IMG/VR virus record: IMGVR_UViG_3300044846_003573
Direction: 5' to 3' (one strand)
Length of the DNA: 64,000 nucleotides
Source: a virus
Taxonomy: Duplodnaviria > Caudoviricetes
Below the pieces are notes generated by a model. It ran no database searches, was not told the origin of the DNA, and saw only the letters and a list, made by a program, of their open reading frames with translations. A program made the translations under genes and the position numbers. This document shows positions 42,990 to 52,070 of this stretch, piece after piece. Position 1 is the first letter of the stretch; each line of letters starts with the position of its first letter.

Positions 42990-43026
42990 GATACGGACTT
43001 AGGACCGTTGTAGTTTAGGCTACATT

Positions 43027-43059
43027 AACCCCATTGAATTCGCTACTCAGTGGGGTTTT
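43027..43059. terminator. bidirectional terminator overlapping the end of the array-gene operon
   Basis: AACCCCATTGA..TCAGTGGGGTTTT. Confidence 0.7.
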
Positions 43060-43777
43060 CATTTAAGACATCTTCCACCACTGGTGAATTACATGTACGT
43101 GATGTGTGTGTTGTAGTTACCTTATGATTTAGGACTTCTTTCACCTCACTGAGAACAATAGTGGGTCTACAATAGGTTTTAGACACCTTATGATTTAATA
43201 CCTTCTCCACCATATTCGGAAACGGCGGTGTATTGAATGATATTGTAGACACCTTATGATTTAATGCCTTTTCCACCAAAACCACTTGTTCCGCATTCGT
43301 CGTTTGTGTTGTAGATACCTTATGATTTAATACATCTTCCACCAAGAAACCTTCGTTACCGATATCGTTTTGCGTTGTGAATACCTTATAATTTAATACC
43401 TCTTCCATCTTCACATTTGCCTTCATGCCCATATAAACAGTTGTAGATACCTTATGATTTAATACCTCTTCCACCTCATCATACTTTTTCTCCGCACACA
43501 ATTCAGTTGTGGGCACCTTATGATTTAATACCTCTTCCACCCAAGAAGCGAGTATTGGTTCAAAATCTTTGGGTTCCAATGAGAAAATGGTAAAAAAACT
43601 ATTAAAGAAATAATATCTCCACCACAAACGACCACTCTTTTCAAATTCAAAATACCAATGCTCCTTTTCTCGGTCAATTAACCATATAGAATCTTTATAT
43701 GGGATTATCTCCACATTACCTAATTCTTTGTATAGTTGTTTGAATACAACCTGTTTTAATCTATCAGTTACTTTCAT
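43043..43777 (-). CDS. array gene A: about 80-aa domain plus in-frame repeat-spacer array (7 spacers)
   Basis: VEEVLNHKVSTT + 10 variable aa, period 22 aa. Confidence 0.85.
   Translation of the reverse strand: MKVTDRLKQVVFKQLYKELGNVEIIPYKDSIWLIDREKEHWYFEFEKSGRLWWRYYFFNSFFTIFSLEPKDFEPILASWVEEVLNHKVPTTELCAEKKYDEVEEVLNHKVSTTVYMGMKANVKMEEVLNYKVFTTQNDIGNEGFLVEDVLNHKVSTTQTTNAEQVVLVEKALNHKVSTISFNTPPFPNMVEKVLNHKVSKTYCRPTIVLSEVKEVLNHKVTTTHTSRTCNSPVVEDVLNENPTE
43044..43541 (-). repeat. CRISPR-like 36-nt repeat / 30-nt spacer array A
   Basis: repeats start at 43506, 43440, 43374, 43308, 43242, 43176, 43110 (period 66) plus a truncated terminal copy. Confidence 0.9.
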
Positions 43778-44507
43778 TTTCTTTTTTGTTGTTTAATGCC
43801 TCATCTACCGATTCCGCTCTTCTTGAGATGAATTCTTCCGTTTTGGATACCTTACGATTCAATATATCTTCCACCAAAAAGTTTCCTTCACCTACGTCAC
43901 GGACTGTTTTGGATACCTTAATATCCAATACCTCTTCCATCTCAAGATTACCTCTTGGGTGGAGATACTCCGTTGTAGATACCTTACGATTCAATACCTG
44001 TTCCACCAAATAGTTGTTAGATAAGGTCATGTTTTTTGTTGTGGATACCTTACTATTCAATACCTCTTCCATCATATCATTCGAAGTGAAACTGAATTGC
44101 TGAGTTGTGGATACCTTACTATTCAATACCTCTTCCACCCCTTGCTTAAAACTTCTGAAACGGCTTGCAGTTGTGGATACCTTACTATTCAATACCTCTT
44201 CCACCCCACCATCCATGACATATTGCGTGCTATCTGTTGTGGATACCTTACTATTCAATACCTCTTCCACCCAAGATGAAATAATTGGTTCAAAATCTTT
44301 GGACTCCAAAGAGAAAAAAGAAAAGAAAGATTTGAAATAATCATATCTCCAATATAAACATCCACTTTCAGTTAGTTGGAAATACCAGTATTTTTCTTCT
44401 CTATCAATAAACCAATAACTGTATTGGGTAGGGATAATTTCCACATTACCTAATTCTTTGTATAGTTGTTTGAATATGAGTTGTTTTAATCTATCCGTTA
44501 CTTTCAT
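43764..44507 (-). CDS. array gene B (7 spacers)
   Basis: VEEVLNSKVSTT repeats; start overlaps stop of gene C. Confidence 0.85.
   Translation of the reverse strand: MKVTDRLKQLIFKQLYKELGNVEIIPTQYSYWFIDREEKYWYFQLTESGCLYWRYDYFKSFFSFFSLESKDFEPIISSWVEEVLNSKVSTTDSTQYVMDGGVEEVLNSKVSTTASRFRSFKQGVEEVLNSKVSTTQQFSFTSNDMMEEVLNSKVSTTKNMTLSNNYLVEQVLNRKVSTTEYLHPRGNLEMEEVLDIKVSKTVRDVGEGNFLVEDILNRKVSKTEEFISRRAESVDEALNNKKENESN
43774..44271 (-). repeat. CRISPR-like array B
   Basis: repeats at 44236, 44170, 44104, 44038, 43972, 43906, 43840; the first three are identical GTTGTGGATACCTTACTATTCAATACCTCTTCCACC. Confidence 0.9.
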
Positions 44508-45195
44508 TTTCTTTTTTATTGTTTAATGCCTTTTTCACCCAAACACTATTTAATACTTCTTCCACTGACCTTTCGGAAAACAAGGAATTATTTTTAGTTG
44601 TAGATACCCTACTATCTAATACTTTTTTTACCTTTCTTTTTTGGGCGGCGTCTACTTCAAAAGTTTCGGATACCTTATGATTTAAGACCTCTTCCACCCA
44701 CTTTGCTGTTACAGTAGTTTTCTCTTCAGTTGTGGATACCTTATGATTTAATACCTCTTCCACCAGAGGAAATTCGTCAATTACAAACATTTTTGTTGTG
44801 GATACCTTATGATTTAAGACCTCTTCCACCTGAAGTAAGCGGTGGGCCAATGTATTACCTGTTGTGGATACCTTATGATTTAATACCTCTTCCACCTTAT
44901 TGTCTCGGCGTACGGAAGGTATACGAGTTGTGGATACCTTATGATTTAAGACCTCTTCCACCCAAGAAGATATTATTGGTTCAAACTCACTCTGTTCCAA
45001 AGAGAAAATGCTGAAAAACGATGGGAAGAATGAGTATCTCCAAAATAAACATCCCTCTTTAGACAACTGAAAATACCAATAACAATTTTCCCTATCAATG
45101 AACCATACAGAGTCTTTATATGGGATTATCTCCGCATTACCTAACTCTTTGTATAGGTGTTTGAATATGAGTTGTTTTAGCTTATCTGTAACCAT
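44491..45195 (-). CDS. array gene C (6 spacers)
   Basis: ATG at 45195, 5 nt after TATCTTTG. Confidence 0.85.
   Translation of the reverse strand: MVTDKLKQLIFKHLYKELGNAEIIPYKDSVWFIDRENCYWYFQLSKEGCLFWRYSFFPSFFSIFSLEQSEFEPIISSWVEEVLNHKVSTTRIPSVRRDNKVEEVLNHKVSTTGNTLAHRLLQVEEVLNHKVSTTKMFVIDEFPLVEEVLNHKVSTTEEKTTVTAKWVEEVLNHKVSETFEVDAAQKRKVKKVLDSRVSTTKNNSLFSERSVEEVLNSVWVKKALNNKKENESNG
44531..44962 (-). repeat. CRISPR-like array C
   Basis: repeats at 44927, 44861, 44795, 44729, 44663, 44597. Confidence 0.9.
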
Positions 45196-45231
45196 AAGCA
45201 CAAAGATACAAAAAAACTTTGAAAATACAAA

Positions 45232-45570
45232 TTAATTTTCAGACGGTAATTTTAACGACCATTGGGAGCTCATTATCTTGTTGGACATTTGACCCTCCAA
45301 ATTCAGTTTTTTCTTAACCCATTGTCCAATAATTCTGGTAGATTGATAACTGTTAAGAGAAAAGAAGGAAGAAATTGCTTCAATTAAACCTTTATAGATA
45401 AAACACAATTCATTATTGGAATGATTACCACCATATTGAATTTGAGCAGACTCATCTTTAGGATATGAAAAATATATACTGGCACCAGTTTTAGTTATAT
45501 TGAAATCCTGACTATCAAGATACCTGAATATTACTTTATCTAATTGTGATTCTGTGATTAAATATTTCAT
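45232..45570 (-). CDS. MKYxITESQL-tag protein (IFRYLD domain)
   Basis: shared tag and domain. Confidence 0.8.
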   Translation of the reverse strand: MKYLITESQLDKVIFRYLDSQDFNITKTGASIYFSYPKDESAQIQYGGNHSNNELCFIYKGLIEAISSFFSLNSYQSTRIIGQWVKKKLNLEGQMSNKIMSSQWSLKLPSEN

Positions 45571-45938
45571 GATAATGTTATACTTCTAACTGATTTAACT
45601 TCATAGTCAGGAAAGAACTCATTAAATACATCTGACATAATGAATTTGCCGTGAACTAACCAAATAGGATGAGGAAACGCTGTACCATATACATCGTCAA
45701 AGTTCCTATTATAGTATAAATCACCACTTGGTTTATTATAAACCATTACGGCGTTTTGGTCACTATCAAATAAGTTAAGTCTTAAATCATTTTCAGAATG
45801 TGAATCAACCAAATTTTCAAAATAACGAATCATTTTAGGTTTGAGTCTATTGTATTGTTCCGTATATTCAGAATCTCTCCAAGTTCTTTCAAGTTCGGAT
45901 ATTAAATTATATTGTGACTCGGTAATAATATACTTCAT
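45567..45938 (-). CDS. MKYxITESQ-tag protein
   Basis: shared tag. Confidence 0.75.
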   Translation of the reverse strand: MKYIITESQYNLISELERTWRDSEYTEQYNRLKPKMIRYFENLVDSHSENDLRLNLFDSDQNAVMVYNKPSGDLYYNRNFDDVYGTAFPHPIWLVHGKFIMSDVFNEFFPDYEVKSVRSITLS

Positions 45939-45970
45939 GTAATAATAAATATAATTATATTTATAATATT

Positions 45971-46294
45971 ATGAACCTACAAGAGAATATAAAAAAAGTA
46001 TTAAGGGAAGAAACAGATTTTTCACCACAGTTCAAAAGAAGACTGAATAGATTTAAATCGTTTGTATGGGATAATAATGTAACTAATTATCCATGTGATT
46101 TTGAAAACTTTGAAGCGTTCATGCGTGGTATACAACATGAAATTATGGACATGATTACAGATGGTTCTGATACCGATGGCCCGTTGTCTGATTGGTTAAC
46201 ATATAAAGATGGTGTTACGTATGTAGAAAACTACATGAGGGATGACTTAGAAAAGTTTTATAATAAGCAATGTGTTGATGTCTTATACGTATAA
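45971..46294 (+). CDS. MNLQE..LREE-tag protein
   Basis: shared tag; TATTTAT upstream. Confidence 0.75.
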   Translation: MNLQENIKKVLREETDFSPQFKRRLNRFKSFVWDNNVTNYPCDFENFEAFMRGIQHEIMDMITDGSDTDGPLSDWLTYKDGVTYVENYMRDDLEKFYNKQCVDVLYV

Positions 46295-46639
46295 ATCAAG
46301 AAATTGTTCAATTGATATTCCAAGACCTGAGATACCAAAAAAGTTCATAAAGTCGGATTCATCCCAAGTATCACATCCGTTATTAATAATCCAAGATTGA
46401 CCTGTGGCATAATTCATCTGATAAAGTAAATCATAACTATTATCTAATTTTATCAGATACATCGGACCATAATTGTCCATATTAAATCTTCTTTGCATAC
46501 TATTATAACTAATACACTCATCAAAAATTATCATTACATCAGTTAAATCTGGGTCAAACTCAACACGACCTGTCAGGTCAATATTAAACTTGTCTTTAAT
46601 GAATGTTTTTAATTTAGATTCGGTGATAAGATATTTCAT
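46283..46639 (-). CDS. MKYxITES-tag protein
   Basis: shared tag. Confidence 0.75.
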   Translation of the reverse strand: MKYLITESKLKTFIKDKFNIDLTGRVEFDPDLTDVMIIFDECISYNSMQRRFNMDNYGPMYLIKLDNSYDLLYQMNYATGQSWIINNGCDTWDESDFMNFFGISGLGISIEQFLDLYV

Positions 46640-46655
46640 TATATATAAATATTAG

Positions 46656-47066
46656 TTAACAATTTCCTGTATTATAAACCTCAATATTGTGAACACTAAT
46701 TAGACCGCCACCGAACTGATATAAAGCCTTAGAAATAACATCTCTATACATACTTCTTGTACCTTCCTCATAGATATACCTTCCCACATTTGCAGGAGCT
46801 GGCTTAGGTATGTAGACGACCAAATTCATAGAGTCACGAGTGGGGATGATATTATAACTACAATACATCAAGACGGTTGAGATATCATTTTCAAGTATAG
46901 TTTTTGTTAGAAAGATAATATCTTCTCTTGTTCCTTTAAGACCAATCTCATCAATAATATCTTCAGGTTCCTTATCAGTCATTTTACACAGAGTACGCAT
47001 ACCAAATTTCTCTAATAAGGGTTTAAGAGTTTTGTTATATTGATTCTCAGTGATTAAGTATTTCAT
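46656..47066 (-). CDS. MKYxITEN-tag protein
   Basis: shared tag. Confidence 0.75.
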   Translation of the reverse strand: MKYLITENQYNKTLKPLLEKFGMRTLCKMTDKEPEDIIDEIGLKGTREDIIFLTKTILENDISTVLMYCSYNIIPTRDSMNLVVYIPKPAPANVGRYIYEEGTRSMYRDVISKALYQFGGGLISVHNIEVYNTGNC

Positions 47067-47078
47067 TATATGTAAATA

Positions 47079-47411
47079 TTAGTTATAGTGAACCTTCAAA
47101 ACTTCGGACTTGCTAAAGACAACCCATTGTGAGTAACTGACTTCCATTTGTAGGGTATTTCCAACCCAATTACCAATAATCTTTTTAGAGCGGACTTCAT
47201 CTAAAGAAAATAATACAGAGATGTCCTCAATTAAATTTAAGTTTATCTGACAAACACCATTTTTTTTATTATATCTAATTTGGGCATGTTCATCTTCTTC
47301 TGAATTAACAAAGAATATATTACTACTTGTTTCAATCTGAATAAAGTTCTGGCTATCCAAATATCTAAAGATTACTCTGTCTAATTGTGATTCGGTGATA
47401 AGGTATTTCAT
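47079..47411 (-). CDS. MKYxITESQL-tag protein (IFRYLD domain)
   Basis: shared tag and domain. Confidence 0.8.
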   Translation of the reverse strand: MKYLITESQLDRVIFRYLDSQNFIQIETSSNIFFVNSEEDEHAQIRYNKKNGVCQINLNLIEDISVLFSLDEVRSKKIIGNWVGNTLQMEVSYSQWVVFSKSEVLKVHYN

Positions 47412-47414
47412 ATA

Positions 47415-47735
47415 TTAATAATCAAAAAACATAACATCAACATCAAATGCTTTACTAAACCAATCAGAAATGAATTTACCTGATTGCTCTTTATCAAGTG
47501 GATACATGGATGAAAACTTATCTAAAAAAGATTCATCAATATATAATCTACCATCGCTGTGGTCAAACTCCATTAAAATAAAAAAATCAGGGCCTCTTTC
47601 AGGGCTATATATATTAATGAAATCACTATCTGATGTTCTATCATAATCTAATAATTTATTTAACTCAGATATCATTAAATTATTTATTACCGATTTGACT
47701 TTATCTAATTGTGATTCGGTGATGAGGTATTTCAT
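47415..47735 (-). CDS. MKYxITESQL-tag protein
   Basis: start moved to MKYLITE. Confidence 0.75.
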   Translation of the reverse strand: MKYLITESQLDKVKSVINNLMISELNKLLDYDRTSDSDFINIYSPERGPDFFILMEFDHSDGRLYIDESFLDKFSSMYPLDKEQSGKFISDWFSKAFDVDVMFFDY

Positions 47736-47768
47736 ATAAAATATAAATATAATCATATTTATAATAAT

Positions 47769-48098
47769 ATGAACTTAAAAGAATCTATAAAAAGAATACT
47801 GAGGGAAGAACTATCGGCGAGAATTAAAAGAAGACTTTCTAATGATGAAATGGAAAATGAGTTTCTTGAATCTTTTGAAGGCGCTTATCGTCTTACAAAA
47901 GACAGAAAGGTTTTAAGTTCACATTTTTTAGATGAGTTAGTCTACACAACAATAACCTTTATGATGGATGGGGTACATTGGAGATTTGTTAGTACATTAC
48001 CTGAAGATGAATTTTGGTATGATGATATACACCAAGGATTAGAAAATCATTATAGAAAAAGAATTACACGGATGTATAATGAAAGAAAAGGTTTTTAA
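47769..48098 (+). CDS. MNLxE..LREE-tag protein
   Basis: MNLKESIKRILREE. Confidence 0.75.
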   Translation: MNLKESIKRILREELSARIKRRLSNDEMENEFLESFEGAYRLTKDRKVLSSHFLDELVYTTITFMMDGVHWRFVSTLPEDEFWYDDIHQGLENHYRKRITRMYNERKGF

Positions 48099-48101
48099 AG
48101 A

Positions 48102-48380
48102 TTAATTAGAGTTTAAGAATTTGAGTAACGCTCTAATATATTCGGAACGTTTATTATAGAATTCAGTATCATCATCATATTGAAAAAACTCTTCACCTCT
48201 ATGTCTATCAACGAACTTTTCAATTAATTCATAAGCGTAGTCATCTCTGTCGGCGGAATCTTCAAAATCTTCTTCATCCATAATGTAGTTATAATCATCC
48301 CTAAGTGATTCCAATTCATCCATTGTAAACCTCCTAAGTAAAAATGCTTCTAACTGTGATTCTGTAATTAAGTATTTCAT
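48102..48380 (-). CDS. MKYxITESQL-tag protein
   Basis: shared tag; acidic body. Confidence 0.75.
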   Translation of the reverse strand: MKYLITESQLEAFLLRRFTMDELESLRDDYNYIMDEEDFEDSADRDDYAYELIEKFVDRHRGEEFFQYDDDTEFYNKRSEYIRALLKFLNSN

Positions 48381-48733
48381 TATTCGTTAACCATTAATCT
48401 GTAATCATATGGACCATCCCAAACCGTACTATCACTAATACCCAAAGTATTATTAACCCATGCTTTGATTATATCCAAACAATCCGATTTATCAATGGAG
48501 AAGAAGGTAGATAATTTATCAGTCAAATCAGAATTTACAAACACCCAATTCCTAACTTCACCAAAAGCGTTATTAGTATAAACACTAATCTGTGATTCCC
48601 TATCTGACTCACTGTTTAAGAAATATATATAATTGCTGAATTTCTTCTTGTTGTCATACATCACAAAGTCCTGAATATCAAGATACTTAAAGATTACTTT
48701 CTCTAATTTTGATTCGGTGATAAGGTATTTCAT
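48380..48733 (-). CDS. MKYxITES-tag protein (IFKYLD domain)
   Basis: shared tag and domain. Confidence 0.8.
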   Translation of the reverse strand: MKYLITESKLEKVIFKYLDIQDFVMYDNKKKFSNYIYFLNSESDRESQISVYTNNAFGEVRNWVFVNSDLTDKLSTFFSIDKSDCLDIIKAWVNNTLGISDSTVWDGPYDYRLMVNE

Positions 48734-49068
48734 TATATATAAATATTCTTAGGTATTTTCAACCAAGACTGGGTCATCAAACCAGCCTTGGTGGTATTTG
48801 TAACTTTCATTTGTAGGGTATTCCCAACCCACCTACCAATAGCCGATTCAGAATCAGATTTGTCCAAAGAAAATAACGATGAGATGTTCTTGATTAATTC
48901 GGGACTTATTACGCAACCAAAATTACCATTTTTGATTTGAGCATATTCATCATCTTCAGAGTTAACGAAGTATACTAAAAGACCTATTTTAATTTGAATA
49001 AAATCTTGATGGTTCAAGTAAATAAAGATTGCTCTATCTAATTGTGATTCGGTGATAAGGTATTTCAT
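48733..49068 (-). CDS. MKYxITESQL-tag protein (IFxYL domain)
   Basis: shared tag and domain. Confidence 0.8.
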   Translation of the reverse strand: MKYLITESQLDRAIFIYLNHQDFIQIKIGLLVYFVNSEDDEYAQIKNGNFGCVISPELIKNISSLFSLDKSDSESAIGRWVGNTLQMKVTNTTKAGLMTQSWLKIPKNIYI

Positions 49069-49080
49069 TATATATAAGTA

Positions 49081-49395
49081 TTAGTTAGGTGCTCTCAATC
49101 GTTCAGTGGGTAGGGTGTAAGAAATCTTTATTTGGAGAGTATCACTAACCCAACTACCAATAACTTCTTTTGAATCTAAATAATGTAAAGAAAATAAAGA
49201 AGAAATCTCATCAATTAATTTAGTGGATATATAACACCATTCATTAGTTATACTAGATTTAATTTGAGCGTATTCGTCACCTTCTGAATTAATAAAGTAT
49301 ACACCACCATTTTTCTCAATCTGAATAAAATCCTGATTATCCAAGTACTTAAAGATTACCTGATTTAATTTAGATTCTGTTATAAGGTATTTCAT
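49081..49395 (-). CDS. MKYxITES-tag protein (IFKYLD domain)
   Basis: start moved to MKYLITE. Confidence 0.8.
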   Translation of the reverse strand: MKYLITESKLNQVIFKYLDNQDFIQIEKNGGVYFINSEGDEYAQIKSSITNEWCYISTKLIDEISSLFSLHYLDSKEVIGSWVSDTLQIKISYTLPTERLRAPN

Positions 49396-49502
49396 TATAT
49401 ATAAATACAAAGATACACATAAAACTGAACAATACATATTGGGTTAATAATTTAATAAGAATATGATAATATGGTTTGAGGTTGTTTTTAATACTTATTA
49501 TT

Positions 49503-50210
49503 ATGGATTTATCAAAGTTTTTAACCATAGTAATCCCTTGTAAGAACGAGGGCAAGATAATAGAACAAACGTTGTCCTTATTAAACTTTCAAAAGGGAAT
49601 ACAAGATGTTAGAGTTATTGTTTGTGATTCATCGGATGATGATTATACATCCTATTCTTTGGAAAATAGGAGAACAGATTATTTTAATCTACAGATTATT
49701 TCAGGAGGACTTCCGTCTGTTGCAAGAAATAAGGGGGCTGAGAATGTGGAAACACCTTATGTTTTATTTTTGGATGCTGACATATTCTTATTGGATTTCA
49801 ACATATTAAACAATTGTATATGGGAGTTCTTATTACATAATACAGATTTGATTACATGTAAGGTAAGGTCAACGACAGGTGAGTATAATAGTATATTCAG
49901 ATTGTTTGATACAATACAAAAGGTATTTAAACCAATCACGCCATTTTGTCTTGGTGGGTTCATGATGGTAAAGAAAGAAGTATATGATACAATCGGTGGG
50001 TTTGATGAAAACGCAAGAGTTGCCGAGGATTATCTATTCTCCAAACAAGTTAAACCAAGCAAGTTTTATATCATGAATACGACGGTATTCACAAGTCCAA
50101 GAAGGTTCAAACAGAAAGGGGTGTGGTATATGTTAAAACTTATGGTTAGTTCATTCTTCAACAGAAACAATAAAAATCATTTTGAGGATGATAAAGGATA
50201 CTGGGAATGA
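49503..50210 (+). CDS. family 2 glycosyltransferase
   Basis: IVIPCKNE, VIVCDSSDD, ARNKG, LFLDAD, EDY. Confidence 0.9.
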   Translation: MDLSKFLTIVIPCKNEGKIIEQTLSLLNFQKGIQDVRVIVCDSSDDDYTSYSLENRRTDYFNLQIISGGLPSVARNKGAENVETPYVLFLDADIFLLDFNILNNCIWEFLLHNTDLITCKVRSTTGEYNSIFRLFDTIQKVFKPITPFCLGGFMMVKKEVYDTIGGFDENARVAEDYLFSKQVKPSKFYIMNTTVFTSPRRFKQKGVWYMLKLMVSSFFNRNNKNHFEDDKGYWE

Positions 50211-50923
50211 ATAATTGGAAAACAATAATCATGAGTGATTTACACTTAGGAGCAAGACAATCACAGACAGATAAGATAATAAGTTTCTTGGATAATAACA
50301 CAACAGAAAAACTAATACTGAACGGTGATATTATAGATGGTTGGGCTCTTAAAGGTAATGGTAAATGGACGAAGGATTGTACCAAGATATTCAGGAAGTT
50401 CATGAAGATGTCTGAGAAGAATACAAAGGTAATTTATATAAGAGGAAACCACGATGACTTCCTAAAAGATTTTATTCCATTTAAATTAAACAACATTAGG
50501 ATTGTAAGAAAGTATATACATAATGGTATTGACGGAAGAAAGTATTTTTGTTTTCACGGGGATGTATTGGATTTCGTTATAATGGAAGCGAGGTGGTTAG
50601 CAGTAATCGGTGGATGGTCATATGATATTGTCATTAAGTTTAATACTCTATATAACAAAATAAGAAAGTGGTTTAACTTACCATATCATTCATTGGCAAA
50701 CACAATAAAACAATCAGTAAAAGGGGCAATTAACTTTGTATCTGATTTTGAACAAAACGCGAAAGGTCTAACAAAACAAAAGGGATATGATGTTGCGGTG
50801 TGTGGACATATTCATCACCCGAAGATAGAGAATGACTATATGAACTCAGGAGACTTTTGTGAGAACTCTACATGTCTTGTAGAAGATTATAACGGGGAGT
50901 GGAAGATTATTACTATTAGTTAG
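50207..50923 (+). CDS. LpxH-like (UDP-2,3-diacylglucosamine diphosphatase family) metallophosphoesterase
   Basis: SDLHLG, NGDIIDGW, GNHDD, HGD, CGHIH, NSGD. Confidence 0.85.
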   Translation: MNNWKTIIMSDLHLGARQSQTDKIISFLDNNTTEKLILNGDIIDGWALKGNGKWTKDCTKIFRKFMKMSEKNTKVIYIRGNHDDFLKDFIPFKLNNIRIVRKYIHNGIDGRKYFCFHGDVLDFVIMEARWLAVIGGWSYDIVIKFNTLYNKIRKWFNLPYHSLANTIKQSVKGAINFVSDFEQNAKGLTKQKGYDVAVCGHIHHPKIENDYMNSGDFCENSTCLVEDYNGEWKIITIS

Positions 50924-51245
50924 GTATTTTAAACAAATTGTTCACATCGTGAAAGACCAAACGGGTATAAGTAACCCTCATTTGTAGAGTATTTTCAACC
51001 CATCTACCGATAACTTCCTTAGAATCATATATGTCCAAAGAAAAGAAAGAAGAAATTTCGTAAATTAATCCATGGCGTATATAACACCAACCATCGTTTC
51101 TATCATATCTGATTTGGGCATATTTATCATCTTCCGAATTAACAAAGTATATTGCGTTTCCTCTTTTAATCTGAATAAAGTTCTTAATATCCAAATATCT
51201 AAAGATTACTCTGTCTAATTGTGATTCTGTGATAAGATATTTCAT
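50916..51245 (-). CDS. MKYxITESQL-tag protein (IFRYLD domain)
   Basis: shared tag and domain. Confidence 0.8.
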   Translation of the reverse strand: MKYLITESQLDRVIFRYLDIKNFIQIKRGNAIYFVNSEDDKYAQIRYDRNDGWCYIRHGLIYEISSFFSLDIYDSKEVIGRWVENTLQMRVTYTRLVFHDVNNLFKIPN

Positions 51246-51275: not shown

Positions 51276-51834
51276 TTATTGATTTAAGACCTGTTCCATC
51301 ACATAGTTCATAACAGACATTTCTACATCCGTTGTACATTCCTTATGATTTAATACCTCTTCCACCCCTCTTGTGAAGGGTCCAGAATATGCTTCCAATG
51401 TTGATACCTTATGATTTAATACCTCTTCTACCTCAATTTTTCCAACGTAATCAAGTGAATCGGTTGTAGATACCTTATGATTTAATACTTCTTCCACCAA
51501 TGAATGTTCGGGGTATTTGAGAATGGTAGTTGTAGACACCTTAACATTATGACTTAATACATCTTCCACCCGTGTTCGGATATGAGCATTGTGAGTATTA
51601 GTTGTGGATACCTTACTATTCAATACCTCTTCCACCTTCCAAGGAACACGAACTTTAACATCGCACGTTGTGGATACCTTATGATTTAATACATCTTCCA
51701 CCATCATGCTTTCAACACCGCTACCTGTCACGGTTGTAGATACCTTATGATTTAAGACCTCTTCCACCTTGTCCGTTGTAATTGGAAGTGGAATGAAGGT
51801 TGTGGATACCTTATGATTTAAGACCTCTTCCACC
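51276..51834 (-). repeat. CRISPR-like array D
   Basis: repeats at 51799, 51733, 51667, 51601, 51529 (6-nt insertion), 51463, 51397, 51331. Confidence 0.9.
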
Positions 51835-52070
51835 CAAGAAGATAGAACAGGACAAAAATCATCCAAACTCATGGAGAATATTTGAAAAAACGAATTAAAA
51901 AAATCGTATCTCCACCATAAAGTACCTGACTCATCAAGTTCAAAGTACCAGTATTTATTATCCCTATTAATAAACCATATAGACCCATTATAAGGAATAA
52001 TCTCACAATCACCCAACTCTTTATATAGGTGTTTAAAAATAAGTTGTTTTAATCTATCTGTAATAACCAT
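51276..52070 (-). CDS. array gene D (8 spacers)
   Basis: paralog of A-C; ATG 4 nt after TATATTTG. Confidence 0.85.
   Translation of the reverse strand: MVITDRLKQLIFKHLYKELGDCEIIPYNGSIWFINRDNKYWYFELDESGTLWWRYDFFNSFFQIFSMSLDDFCPVLSSWVEEVLNHKVSTTFIPLPITTDKVEEVLNHKVSTTVTGSGVESMMVEDVLNHKVSTTCDVKVRVPWKVEEVLNSKVSTTNTHNAHIRTRVEDVLSHNVKVSTTTILKYPEHSLVEEVLNHKVSTTDSLDYVGKIEVEEVLNHKVSTLEAYSGPFTRGVEEVLNHKECTTDVEMSVMNYVMEQVLNQ

Follow-up and report, generated by a model that had tools for sequence, protein, structure and literature searches.

The 64,000-nucleotide DNA stretch of the IMG/VR virus record IMGVR_UViG_3300044846_003573 (the window, by which the whole analysed stretch is meant) contains four genes, here called A, B, C and D, in which a near-constant repeat alternates many times with short segments that have nothing in common with each other. 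[quoted passage not shown] The locus raises the question of how such genes acquire their units, and whether the product of the arrays is an RNA or a protein. In the following we argue that polar, unit-wise insertion, combined with recombination, probably builds here a hypervariable phage protein on a CRISPR-like DNA architecture; we hold this reading with moderate confidence.

Genes A-D are real minus-strand open reading frames (ORFs) with one shared plan (43043-45201 and 51276-52070): an N-terminal alpha/beta domain of about 80 residues is followed by 7-9 in-frame units of 66 nt, each encoding 22 residues, namely twelve constant residues (VEEVLNHKVSTT) and ten unique ones. The peptide between two repeats was exactly 10 amino acids long in 723 of about 760 cases, and the 35-nt repeat, searched with at most 3 mismatches, matched 18 times in the window and never in shuffled sequences. 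The borders of the unit are defined at the level of the DNA. Among 96 distinct units the information content is high at unit positions 1-35 and at position 66, the wobble of the last variable codon, which is G in 91 of them, and position 36, the Thr wobble, is random; therefore the true repeat covers 36 nt and each insert 30 nt, offset by 1 base from the codons. Since 36 + 30 = 66 nt equals 22 codons, an insertion of this kind never shifts the frame. Every lineage, even at a protein identity of about 31%, retains the skeleton GGTGGAAGA..TAAAT..TAAGGT..CAAC, while the peptide encoded mid-repeat changes, and the conserved GTG, GAA and AAT codons have a wobble entropy of 0-0.3 bits, compared with 0.9 bits for domain residues of equal conservation.

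Several results indicate that the arrays are read as protein. An in-frame stop occurs in none of the 76 distinct inserts of the close relatives, versus 17-45 of the 76 in each of the other five frames, and stops are likewise missing from all 412 distinct insert peptides collected from 155 arrays. All 252 matches to the repeat skeleton at 50 loci are in frame within long ORFs, and no array runs past a stop. Between near-identical inserts 24 synonymous and 17 nonsynonymous changes were counted, where the neutral expectation is 22% synonymous, which corresponds to a ratio of nonsynonymous to synonymous substitution (dN/dS) of about 0.2 (p 5e-7). Retained inserts thus evolve under purifying selection as peptides, and only frame-keeping inserts are present. 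Judged by their frames and substitutions, the array genes are translated, peptide-selected phage proteins.

An earlier note, made from the letters of the window alone, had described the arrays as polarised, with clean repeats beside the domain and decayed ones at the distal end. When repeat divergence was followed along 41 arrays, taken from the window and 50 related loci, it did rise with distance from the domain: the terminal unit excluded, Spearman rho was 0.47 (p 1e-15, to be read with the reservation that the compared arrays are phylogenetically related, so the p-values overstate independence), the correlation was positive in 37 of 40 arrays, and the mean number of mismatches, 2.0 for unit 1, climbed to 7-8 for units 7-8. 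In gene B the repeats at 44270, 44204 and 44138 are identical over 35 nt, the Thr wobble being their sole difference; the fourth repeat differs by 1 nt, repeats 5-7 carry 3-4 mismatches and the terminal half repeat 17 (0,0,0,1,3,4,4,17 relative to the consensus of the array), just as the note had said of three identical repeats followed by drift. Its statement that C and D have the same gradient held for C (1,0,1,0,3,9,15,15), and D displays a weak one only (1,2,1,3,11,2,4,3, where 11 belongs to a repeat with a 6-nt insertion). Gene A is, as described, diverged throughout (3,0,4,1,4,4,5), and a half repeat indeed closes every array (VEDVLN-, VDEALN-, VEEVLN-/VKKALN- and MEQVLN-). The AGT/TTG variant of the repeat, believed to be specific to B, is not so, since repeat 4 of D (51601-51635) is identical to the B-type repeat.

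The position at which arrays gain their units was read from the comparison of strains. Orthologous arrays differ by whole 66-nt units. Among 155 distinct arrays, inserts found in one array only make up 72 of 145 at position 1 and 167 of 602 elsewhere (50% versus 28%, p 9e-7), and widespread inserts hold their place when counted from the distal end, but not when counted from the domain. Compared with the nearest relative, 58 private units are leading, 28 internal and 16 trailing; the novel ones among them number 51, 17 and 3, respectively (p 3e-12 for the asymmetry of leading and trailing units). Crossover between arrays predicts symmetric leading and trailing differences, therefore the ratio of 51 to 3 favours a polar source of novelty. 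Whether the repeats flanking novel inserts are identical proved uninformative, since inserts from sparsely sampled lineages all score as novel. The order of the cassettes is broken in only 2 of 69 array pairs. The clearest single case is a metagenomic array, L103, which has the insert order of the L102/L104 type plus one extra unit adjoining the domain: the repeat of this unit reproduces the next repeat, with the private variant of the latter, at 36/36 positions, and the remaining 562 nt differ from L102 at 5 sites. From these alignments it follows that novel units appear mainly at the domain junction, accompanied by an exact duplicate of the first repeat. This agrees with the proposals of the earlier note that the domain end is the young, growing end and the distal end the old one, for which the third-codon gradient described below also speaks, and that new units copy the local first repeat; in the comparison of strains which the note had suggested, distal units are indeed common to strains and novel ones are concentrated at position 1.

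The inserts themselves are independent of each other and do not resemble the rest of the phage. Their pairwise identity is bimodal, being either at chance level (at most 18/30) or near identity (at least 24/30), and neighbouring inserts are no more similar than chance. The 155 distinct arrays yielded 340 insert clusters, and the Chao1 estimator gives about 1050. The guanine-plus-cytosine (GC) content of the inserts is 43% in the close clade, versus 31% in the genome, and 30-mers of the phage that pass the same no-stop filter have 33%; the amino-acid composition of the inserts is closer to random translation (r 0.85) than to phage proteins (r 0.73). By these measures the composition of the inserts is foreign to the phage. 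GC at third codon positions (GC3) is 40.4% for inserts in the first unit, versus 31.6% from position 4 onwards (p 0.006, 163 clusters), and GC at first and second codon positions is flat; on this evidence the proximal inserts look recently arrived, and the distal ones look ameliorated toward the composition of the phage. A single match has any resemblance to a source. A 24-nt exact match (35/39 overall) connects window positions 43077-43100 with the antisense strand of rpmF, the gene of ribosomal protein L32, in one Bacteroidota family (G297 and relatives). It spans insert 7 of gene A from 9 nt inside, then 3 nt of the next repeat, and the chance estimate is about 2%. It is the sole possible protospacer lead and probably a chance match.

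Several results weigh against the reading favoured here, beside the relatedness of the compared arrays mentioned above. Searches for protospacers matched only the arrays themselves in the window and the related loci, in five related phage genomes and in cultured phages (up to an E value of 5); no protospacer was found in 401 Bacteroidota genomes or in four Flavobacterium and Sphingobacterium genomes, and exact scans of IMG/VR and JGI metagenomes, made with a handful of inserts only, gave none. About a quarter of the novel units are internal, as are 28 of the 102 private ones, and the most distal unit, the one after the conserved FEVDAAQKRK anchor, varies too. Some cassettes turn up in more than one paralogue and at varied places along the array: a D-type insert was seen in C-type arrays, a D tail on C-type genes and one insert twice in P0026, and internal replacements were found between otherwise identical arrays. 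Cassettes shared in this manner mean that recombination alone explains part of the pattern. As the alignments show, units are also lost and replaced, and pass between strains and paralogues; recombination within the repeats is the simplest route for this. The earlier note had itself named changes at random positions and homogenisation by unequal crossover as what would speak against polar growth; internal gain, loss and replacement, exchange between paralogues and distal variation do occur, yet alongside the polarity. On the side of the host, no array with the phage repeat was found among GTDB representatives. The similarity of that repeat to the closest host repeats, those of type VI-B arrays, is only 64-67%, and chance 36-mers in the window reach 22-23/36. 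Furthermore the leader-proximal end of the repeat and the flanking 'leader' bear no similarity to Flavobacterium leaders.

The events behind polar insertion with recombination could be pictured in the following way. An integrase-like step would duplicate the first repeat, which in gene B would be the one listed first at the DNA level in the table, and would add 30 nt of non-phage sequence at the junction of domain and repeat. An insertion of 36 + 30 nt would keep the frame, and host spacers of 29 or 31 nt would be purged. Older units would then move in the distal direction, where their repeats would decay, their GC3 would fall toward that of the phage and their inserts would become common among strains, and recombination within the repeats would cause the loss, replacement and exchange of units between strains and paralogues. 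The protein would, as a best guess, display many selected short peptides that act in binding or as decoys in the conflict of phage and host.

The strongest competitor dispenses with insertion. It sees in the arrays an old modular family in which a large standing pool of cassettes is shuffled, with duplications and deletions, as the 36-nt repeats recombine in homologous or unequal fashion, and nothing arises de novo; the polarity would come about because the still identical proximal repeats recombine and the decayed distal ones are frozen. Much can be said for it: the cassettes CDV[KE]VRVPWK, DVEMSVMNYV and TFGGGGHSK[EK], the last of them the one present twice in P0026, occupy varied positions and paralogues, internal replacements such as DGYD/EYGF/QTTN exist, a B-type repeat sits inside D, crossover would preserve the conserved cassette order, and neither an insertion enzyme nor a protospacer was found. 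Its prediction of symmetry contradicts the 51 leading and 3 trailing novel units. It also cannot create at least 340 unrelated cassettes (Chao1 about 1050) without intermediates, and it predicts neither the GC3 gradient and the non-phage composition of the proximal inserts nor the sharp, codon-offset DNA borders with their fixed G and free Thr wobble. We consider this explanation possible, with a substantial minority share of our confidence.

Less probable still is that the phage encodes a diversifier of its own, neither Cas1 nor reverse transcriptase, which recognises the repeat ends and writes 30-nt segments, the likeness to CRISPR being convergent. The conservation of the repeat skeleton and of its wobble positions in all lineages would suit such an enzyme, as would the confinement of the family to related jumbo phages rich in uncharacterised genes, the result that no host array with this repeat was found and the single-unit paralogues described below, which repeat the same layout of repeat, about 29 nt and half repeat. 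On the other hand no candidate gene could be identified, and arrays of the inferred host phylum are alike in geometry (36 + 30), in orientation and in the GTTGT end of the repeat, so we regard this proposal as rather unlikely.

It is very improbable that the arrays act as RNA, be it as true CRISPR or mini-CRISPR arrays or as decoys of Cas13b or Cas9, with ORFs that are incidental or spurious. This reading would account for the 36 + 30 nt layout of repeat and spacer, the degenerate terminal repeat and polar growth, and for the coding strand being the one that gives VI-B-like transcripts of spacer followed by direct repeat; it is contradicted by 412 inserts free of stops, by repeats that are always in frame, by a dN/dS of 0.2, by a repeat that continues the helix of the folded domain, and by repeat peptides conserved while the mid-repeat DNA changes between lineages, and neither the VI-B hairpin nor an Rfam match, protospacers or cas genes were found. 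Spurious translation of spaced repeats such as CRISPR has been described (PMC7673337); for the present genes it was rejected on the evidence of stops, frame and dN/dS. A crRNA (CRISPR RNA) mimic directed at Cas13b was also rejected as the main function, the phage repeats having no VI-B hairpin. Diversity-generating retroelements (DGRs) or local hypermutation, by which duplicated units would have their 30-nt part mutated beyond recognition, would fit hypervariable segments between constant flanks in several paralogues per genome, and can be set aside as effectively refuted: five related genomes, of which two are complete, gave no match to a reverse transcriptase (RVT_1), there is no template repeat, orthologous inserts are stable between strains, adjacent inserts are dissimilar, and the bimodal insert identity without intermediates, together with the missing enzyme, excludes duplication-plus-divergence as well.

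Positions of the array genes, their parts and the related small genes in the window
Feature	Position	Strand	Remarks
Gene C	44491..45201	-	ORF; likely true start is the ATG at 45195; orthologues in relatives
Gene C, parts	N-terminal domain to 44962; array 44491-44961	-	6 full units and two half repeats
Gene B	43764..44507	-	N-terminal domain 44271-44507; array 43764-44270
Gene B, units	44270, 44204, 44138, 44072, 44006, 43940, 43874; half repeat 43808	-	start positions; 7 full 66-nt units
Gene B, first repeat at the DNA level	44236..44271	-	36 nt, i.e. G of Trp codon plus 35 nt; leader-distal end CCACAAC
Gene A	43043..43777	-	domain 43541-43777; array 43043-43540; 7 full units and half repeat VEDVLNENPTE
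Gene D, fourth paralogue	51276..52070	-	6 kb from the other three; 8 units and half repeat
Small single-unit paralogues (MKYLITESQ family)	45232-45570, 47079-47411, 48733-49068, 50916-51245 (run 45232..51245)	-	same domain

Consecutive array genes overlap from stop to start, C with B at 44491-44507 and B with A at 43764-43777 (..AAAGAAAATGAAAGTAAC[T/G]GA..). This junction was duplicated together with the gene, and the translation of C, B and A is probably coupled; coupled translation would add further selection against stops in the arrays. Just 3' of the stop of gene A, at 42993-43052, there is a weak, sub-threshold Rfam match to the twister-P5 ribozyme (15.5 bits, E 5), which is most likely due to chance.

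The region 45232-51245, between the two groups of array genes, is dense in small paralogues, which belong to the MKYLITESQ family (minus strand) and to a MNLQE..LRE family (plus strand). Several MKYLITESQ genes (48733-49068, 50916-51245, 45232-45570) end in one repeat-like stretch of 36 nt, about 29 nt and an out-of-frame echo of a half repeat, and their products have a fold in common with the domain of the array genes (TM score 0.6-0.8 in BFVD). The domain modelled alone reached a pLDDT (predicted local distance difference test) of 84.5 and folds as a helix, four strands and two helices, the last of which continues into the first half repeat; the full-length AlphaFold model was poor over the array part (pLDDT below 50). 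Family searches of the array proteins, the domain and the neighbouring paralogues against Pfam, PHROGs and PADLOC matched nothing, fold searches of the domain in PDB, BFVD and AFDB returned only uncharacterised phage relatives, the MKYLITESQ neighbours among them, and a search of the ESM Atlas gave no match. Two further paralogues of the array genes (L024:6829-7474 and L029:6461-6992) have repeats decayed near to unrecognisable in a frame that is still open, and look like old arrays which no longer grow. The longest array (L049:5985-7311) encodes 442 amino acids with about 16 units and the repeat peptide VEDTLNCKVDST; the unit VSINKFIPRD occurs in it twice.

The window is AT-rich (31% GC) and its genes include those of Hsp70, histidine kinases, an RNA ligase, thymidylate synthase and two tRNAs; the relatives, contigs reaching 326 kb, come from uncultured jumbo phages of fresh water. 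Among the 118 window ORFs scanned, two proteins carry Por_Secre_tail, the C-terminal sorting domain of type IX secretion and a hallmark of Bacteroidota, and these domains point to a Bacteroidota host. In the same scan there was one match each to Tad6 (a Thoeris inhibitor), to a cyclic-phosphate receiver domain and to a CARF-like PADLOC model. The array-protein family is restricted to related jumbo phages with many uncharacterised genes; metagenomes hold at least 867 homologues, and several paralogues are present per genome.

The array locus likely sits at the interface of conflict between phage and host. No description of such a system was found in the literature searched. Should polar, unit-wise insertion be real, it would constitute a natural writer which places short, unrelated in-frame sequences into a protein, the useful ones being kept; it would parallel CRISPR memory at the level of the protein, would be a route of protein diversification not described before and the first case in which CRISPR-type geometry (36 + 30 nt, 22 codons) is exploited for coding sequence, and it would offer a testable link between the adaptation machinery of the host and the evolution of phage genes. 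Even under recombination only, this would be a large, unstudied hypervariable locus of freshwater Bacteroidota jumbo phages, with at least 867 homologues and an estimated 1000 or more cassettes.

Comparison with known systems begins with CRISPR itself. The geometry, 36-nt repeats and unique 30-nt inserts, is within that of CRISPR arrays (direct repeats of 23-47 nt with unique spacers of similar length), and growth is polar, though not strictly so, with a degenerate terminal repeat. Unlike a non-coding crRNA locus the arrays are always in frame, free of stops, under a dN/dS of 0.2 and continuous with a protein helix. The window gave no match to cas genes, no Cas1 was found in five related phage records, of which two are 100% complete, and the Rfam scan gave chance matches only. 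The arrays are not CRISPR arrays: of the suggestion in the earlier note that acquisition is CRISPR-like and takes place at the leader end, the polar growth stands and the identity with CRISPR falls, the arrays being translated, the complete relatives carrying neither Cas1 nor reverse transcriptase, and no protospacer having been found.

The nearest likeness is to the VI-B arrays of Flavobacterium (F. columnare, F. covae and Flavobacterium sp. J27), which have 36-nt repeats, spacers of 29-31 nt and a 66-nt period as well, and whose repeats have 23-24 of 36 bases in common with the phage repeat in the same orientation. Read from the 'leader', the phage repeat ends in ..GGTATC(T/C)ACAAC, which is the leader-distal GTTGT motif of II-C and VI-B repeats, and both kinds of array gain units at the leader-proximal repeat, carry a degenerate terminal repeat and have old units in common at the far end. 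Unlike VI-B and II-C arrays, those of the phage are located inside translated, peptide-selected genes with a coding domain as 'leader' and a spacer of exactly 30 nt, the leader-proximal half of the repeat differs, and no cas genes or protospacers were found. The repeat hairpin is also missing: host VI-B repeats fold with -10 to -11 kcal/mol (z between -2.5 and -3), the repeat of the main phage lineage with -5.4 (z -1.3), and those of two other lineages do not fold. VI-B arrays are extended in trans by the II-C Cas1-Cas2 (PMC8092290). New arrays, called neo-CRISPR arrays, can also be founded by off-target Cas1-Cas2 integration (Nivala et al. 2018, cited in 10.1101/148544), so that an array can arise at a merely repeat-like site. 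With neither Cas1 nor reverse transcriptase in the phages, the leading candidate for the inserting enzyme is therefore a type II-C Cas1-Cas2 of the Bacteroidota host acting in trans, a tentative assignment which we put forward with low confidence. Somewhat more doubtful is the full proposal that the jumbo phage uses this machinery as an in-frame writer of captured 30-nt fragments, gaining a heritable and selectable repertoire of peptides, and may divert adaptation from the arrays of the host.

Other systems come close in single respects. Virus-borne mini-CRISPR arrays are carried by mobile elements without adaptation genes of their own and are presumably extended by the machinery of the host; their repeat is essentially the unchanged host repeat, they are non-coding, and their spacers are directed against competing viruses. 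The phage arrays differ from these in being protein-coding, in having no target found and in a repeat that is about 65% like any host repeat found, the best reaching 23-24/36. Cyanobactin precursors contain multiple cores, hypervariable cassettes between constant recognition sequences, and polar growth is not known from them. They can be likened to the phage proteins in their constant N-terminal part and in differing short cassettes flanked by near-identical DNA; unlike them the phage arrays have a folded 80-residue domain, no conserved cassette residues and no maturation enzymes seen nearby. In hypervariable tandem-repeat proteins and polar minisatellites, finally, whole units are copies of each other. 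These and modular repeat systems (PMC10392669) resemble the phage locus in the gain, loss and shuffling of units, in divergence at the edges and in several paralogues per locus. The homology of whole units that marks ordinary tandem repeats does not extend to the phage arrays, in which the 30-nt parts, those of neighbours included, are at chance identity: each unit unites a conserved repeat with an unrelated variable segment, and its borders are set at the level of the DNA, not of the codon.

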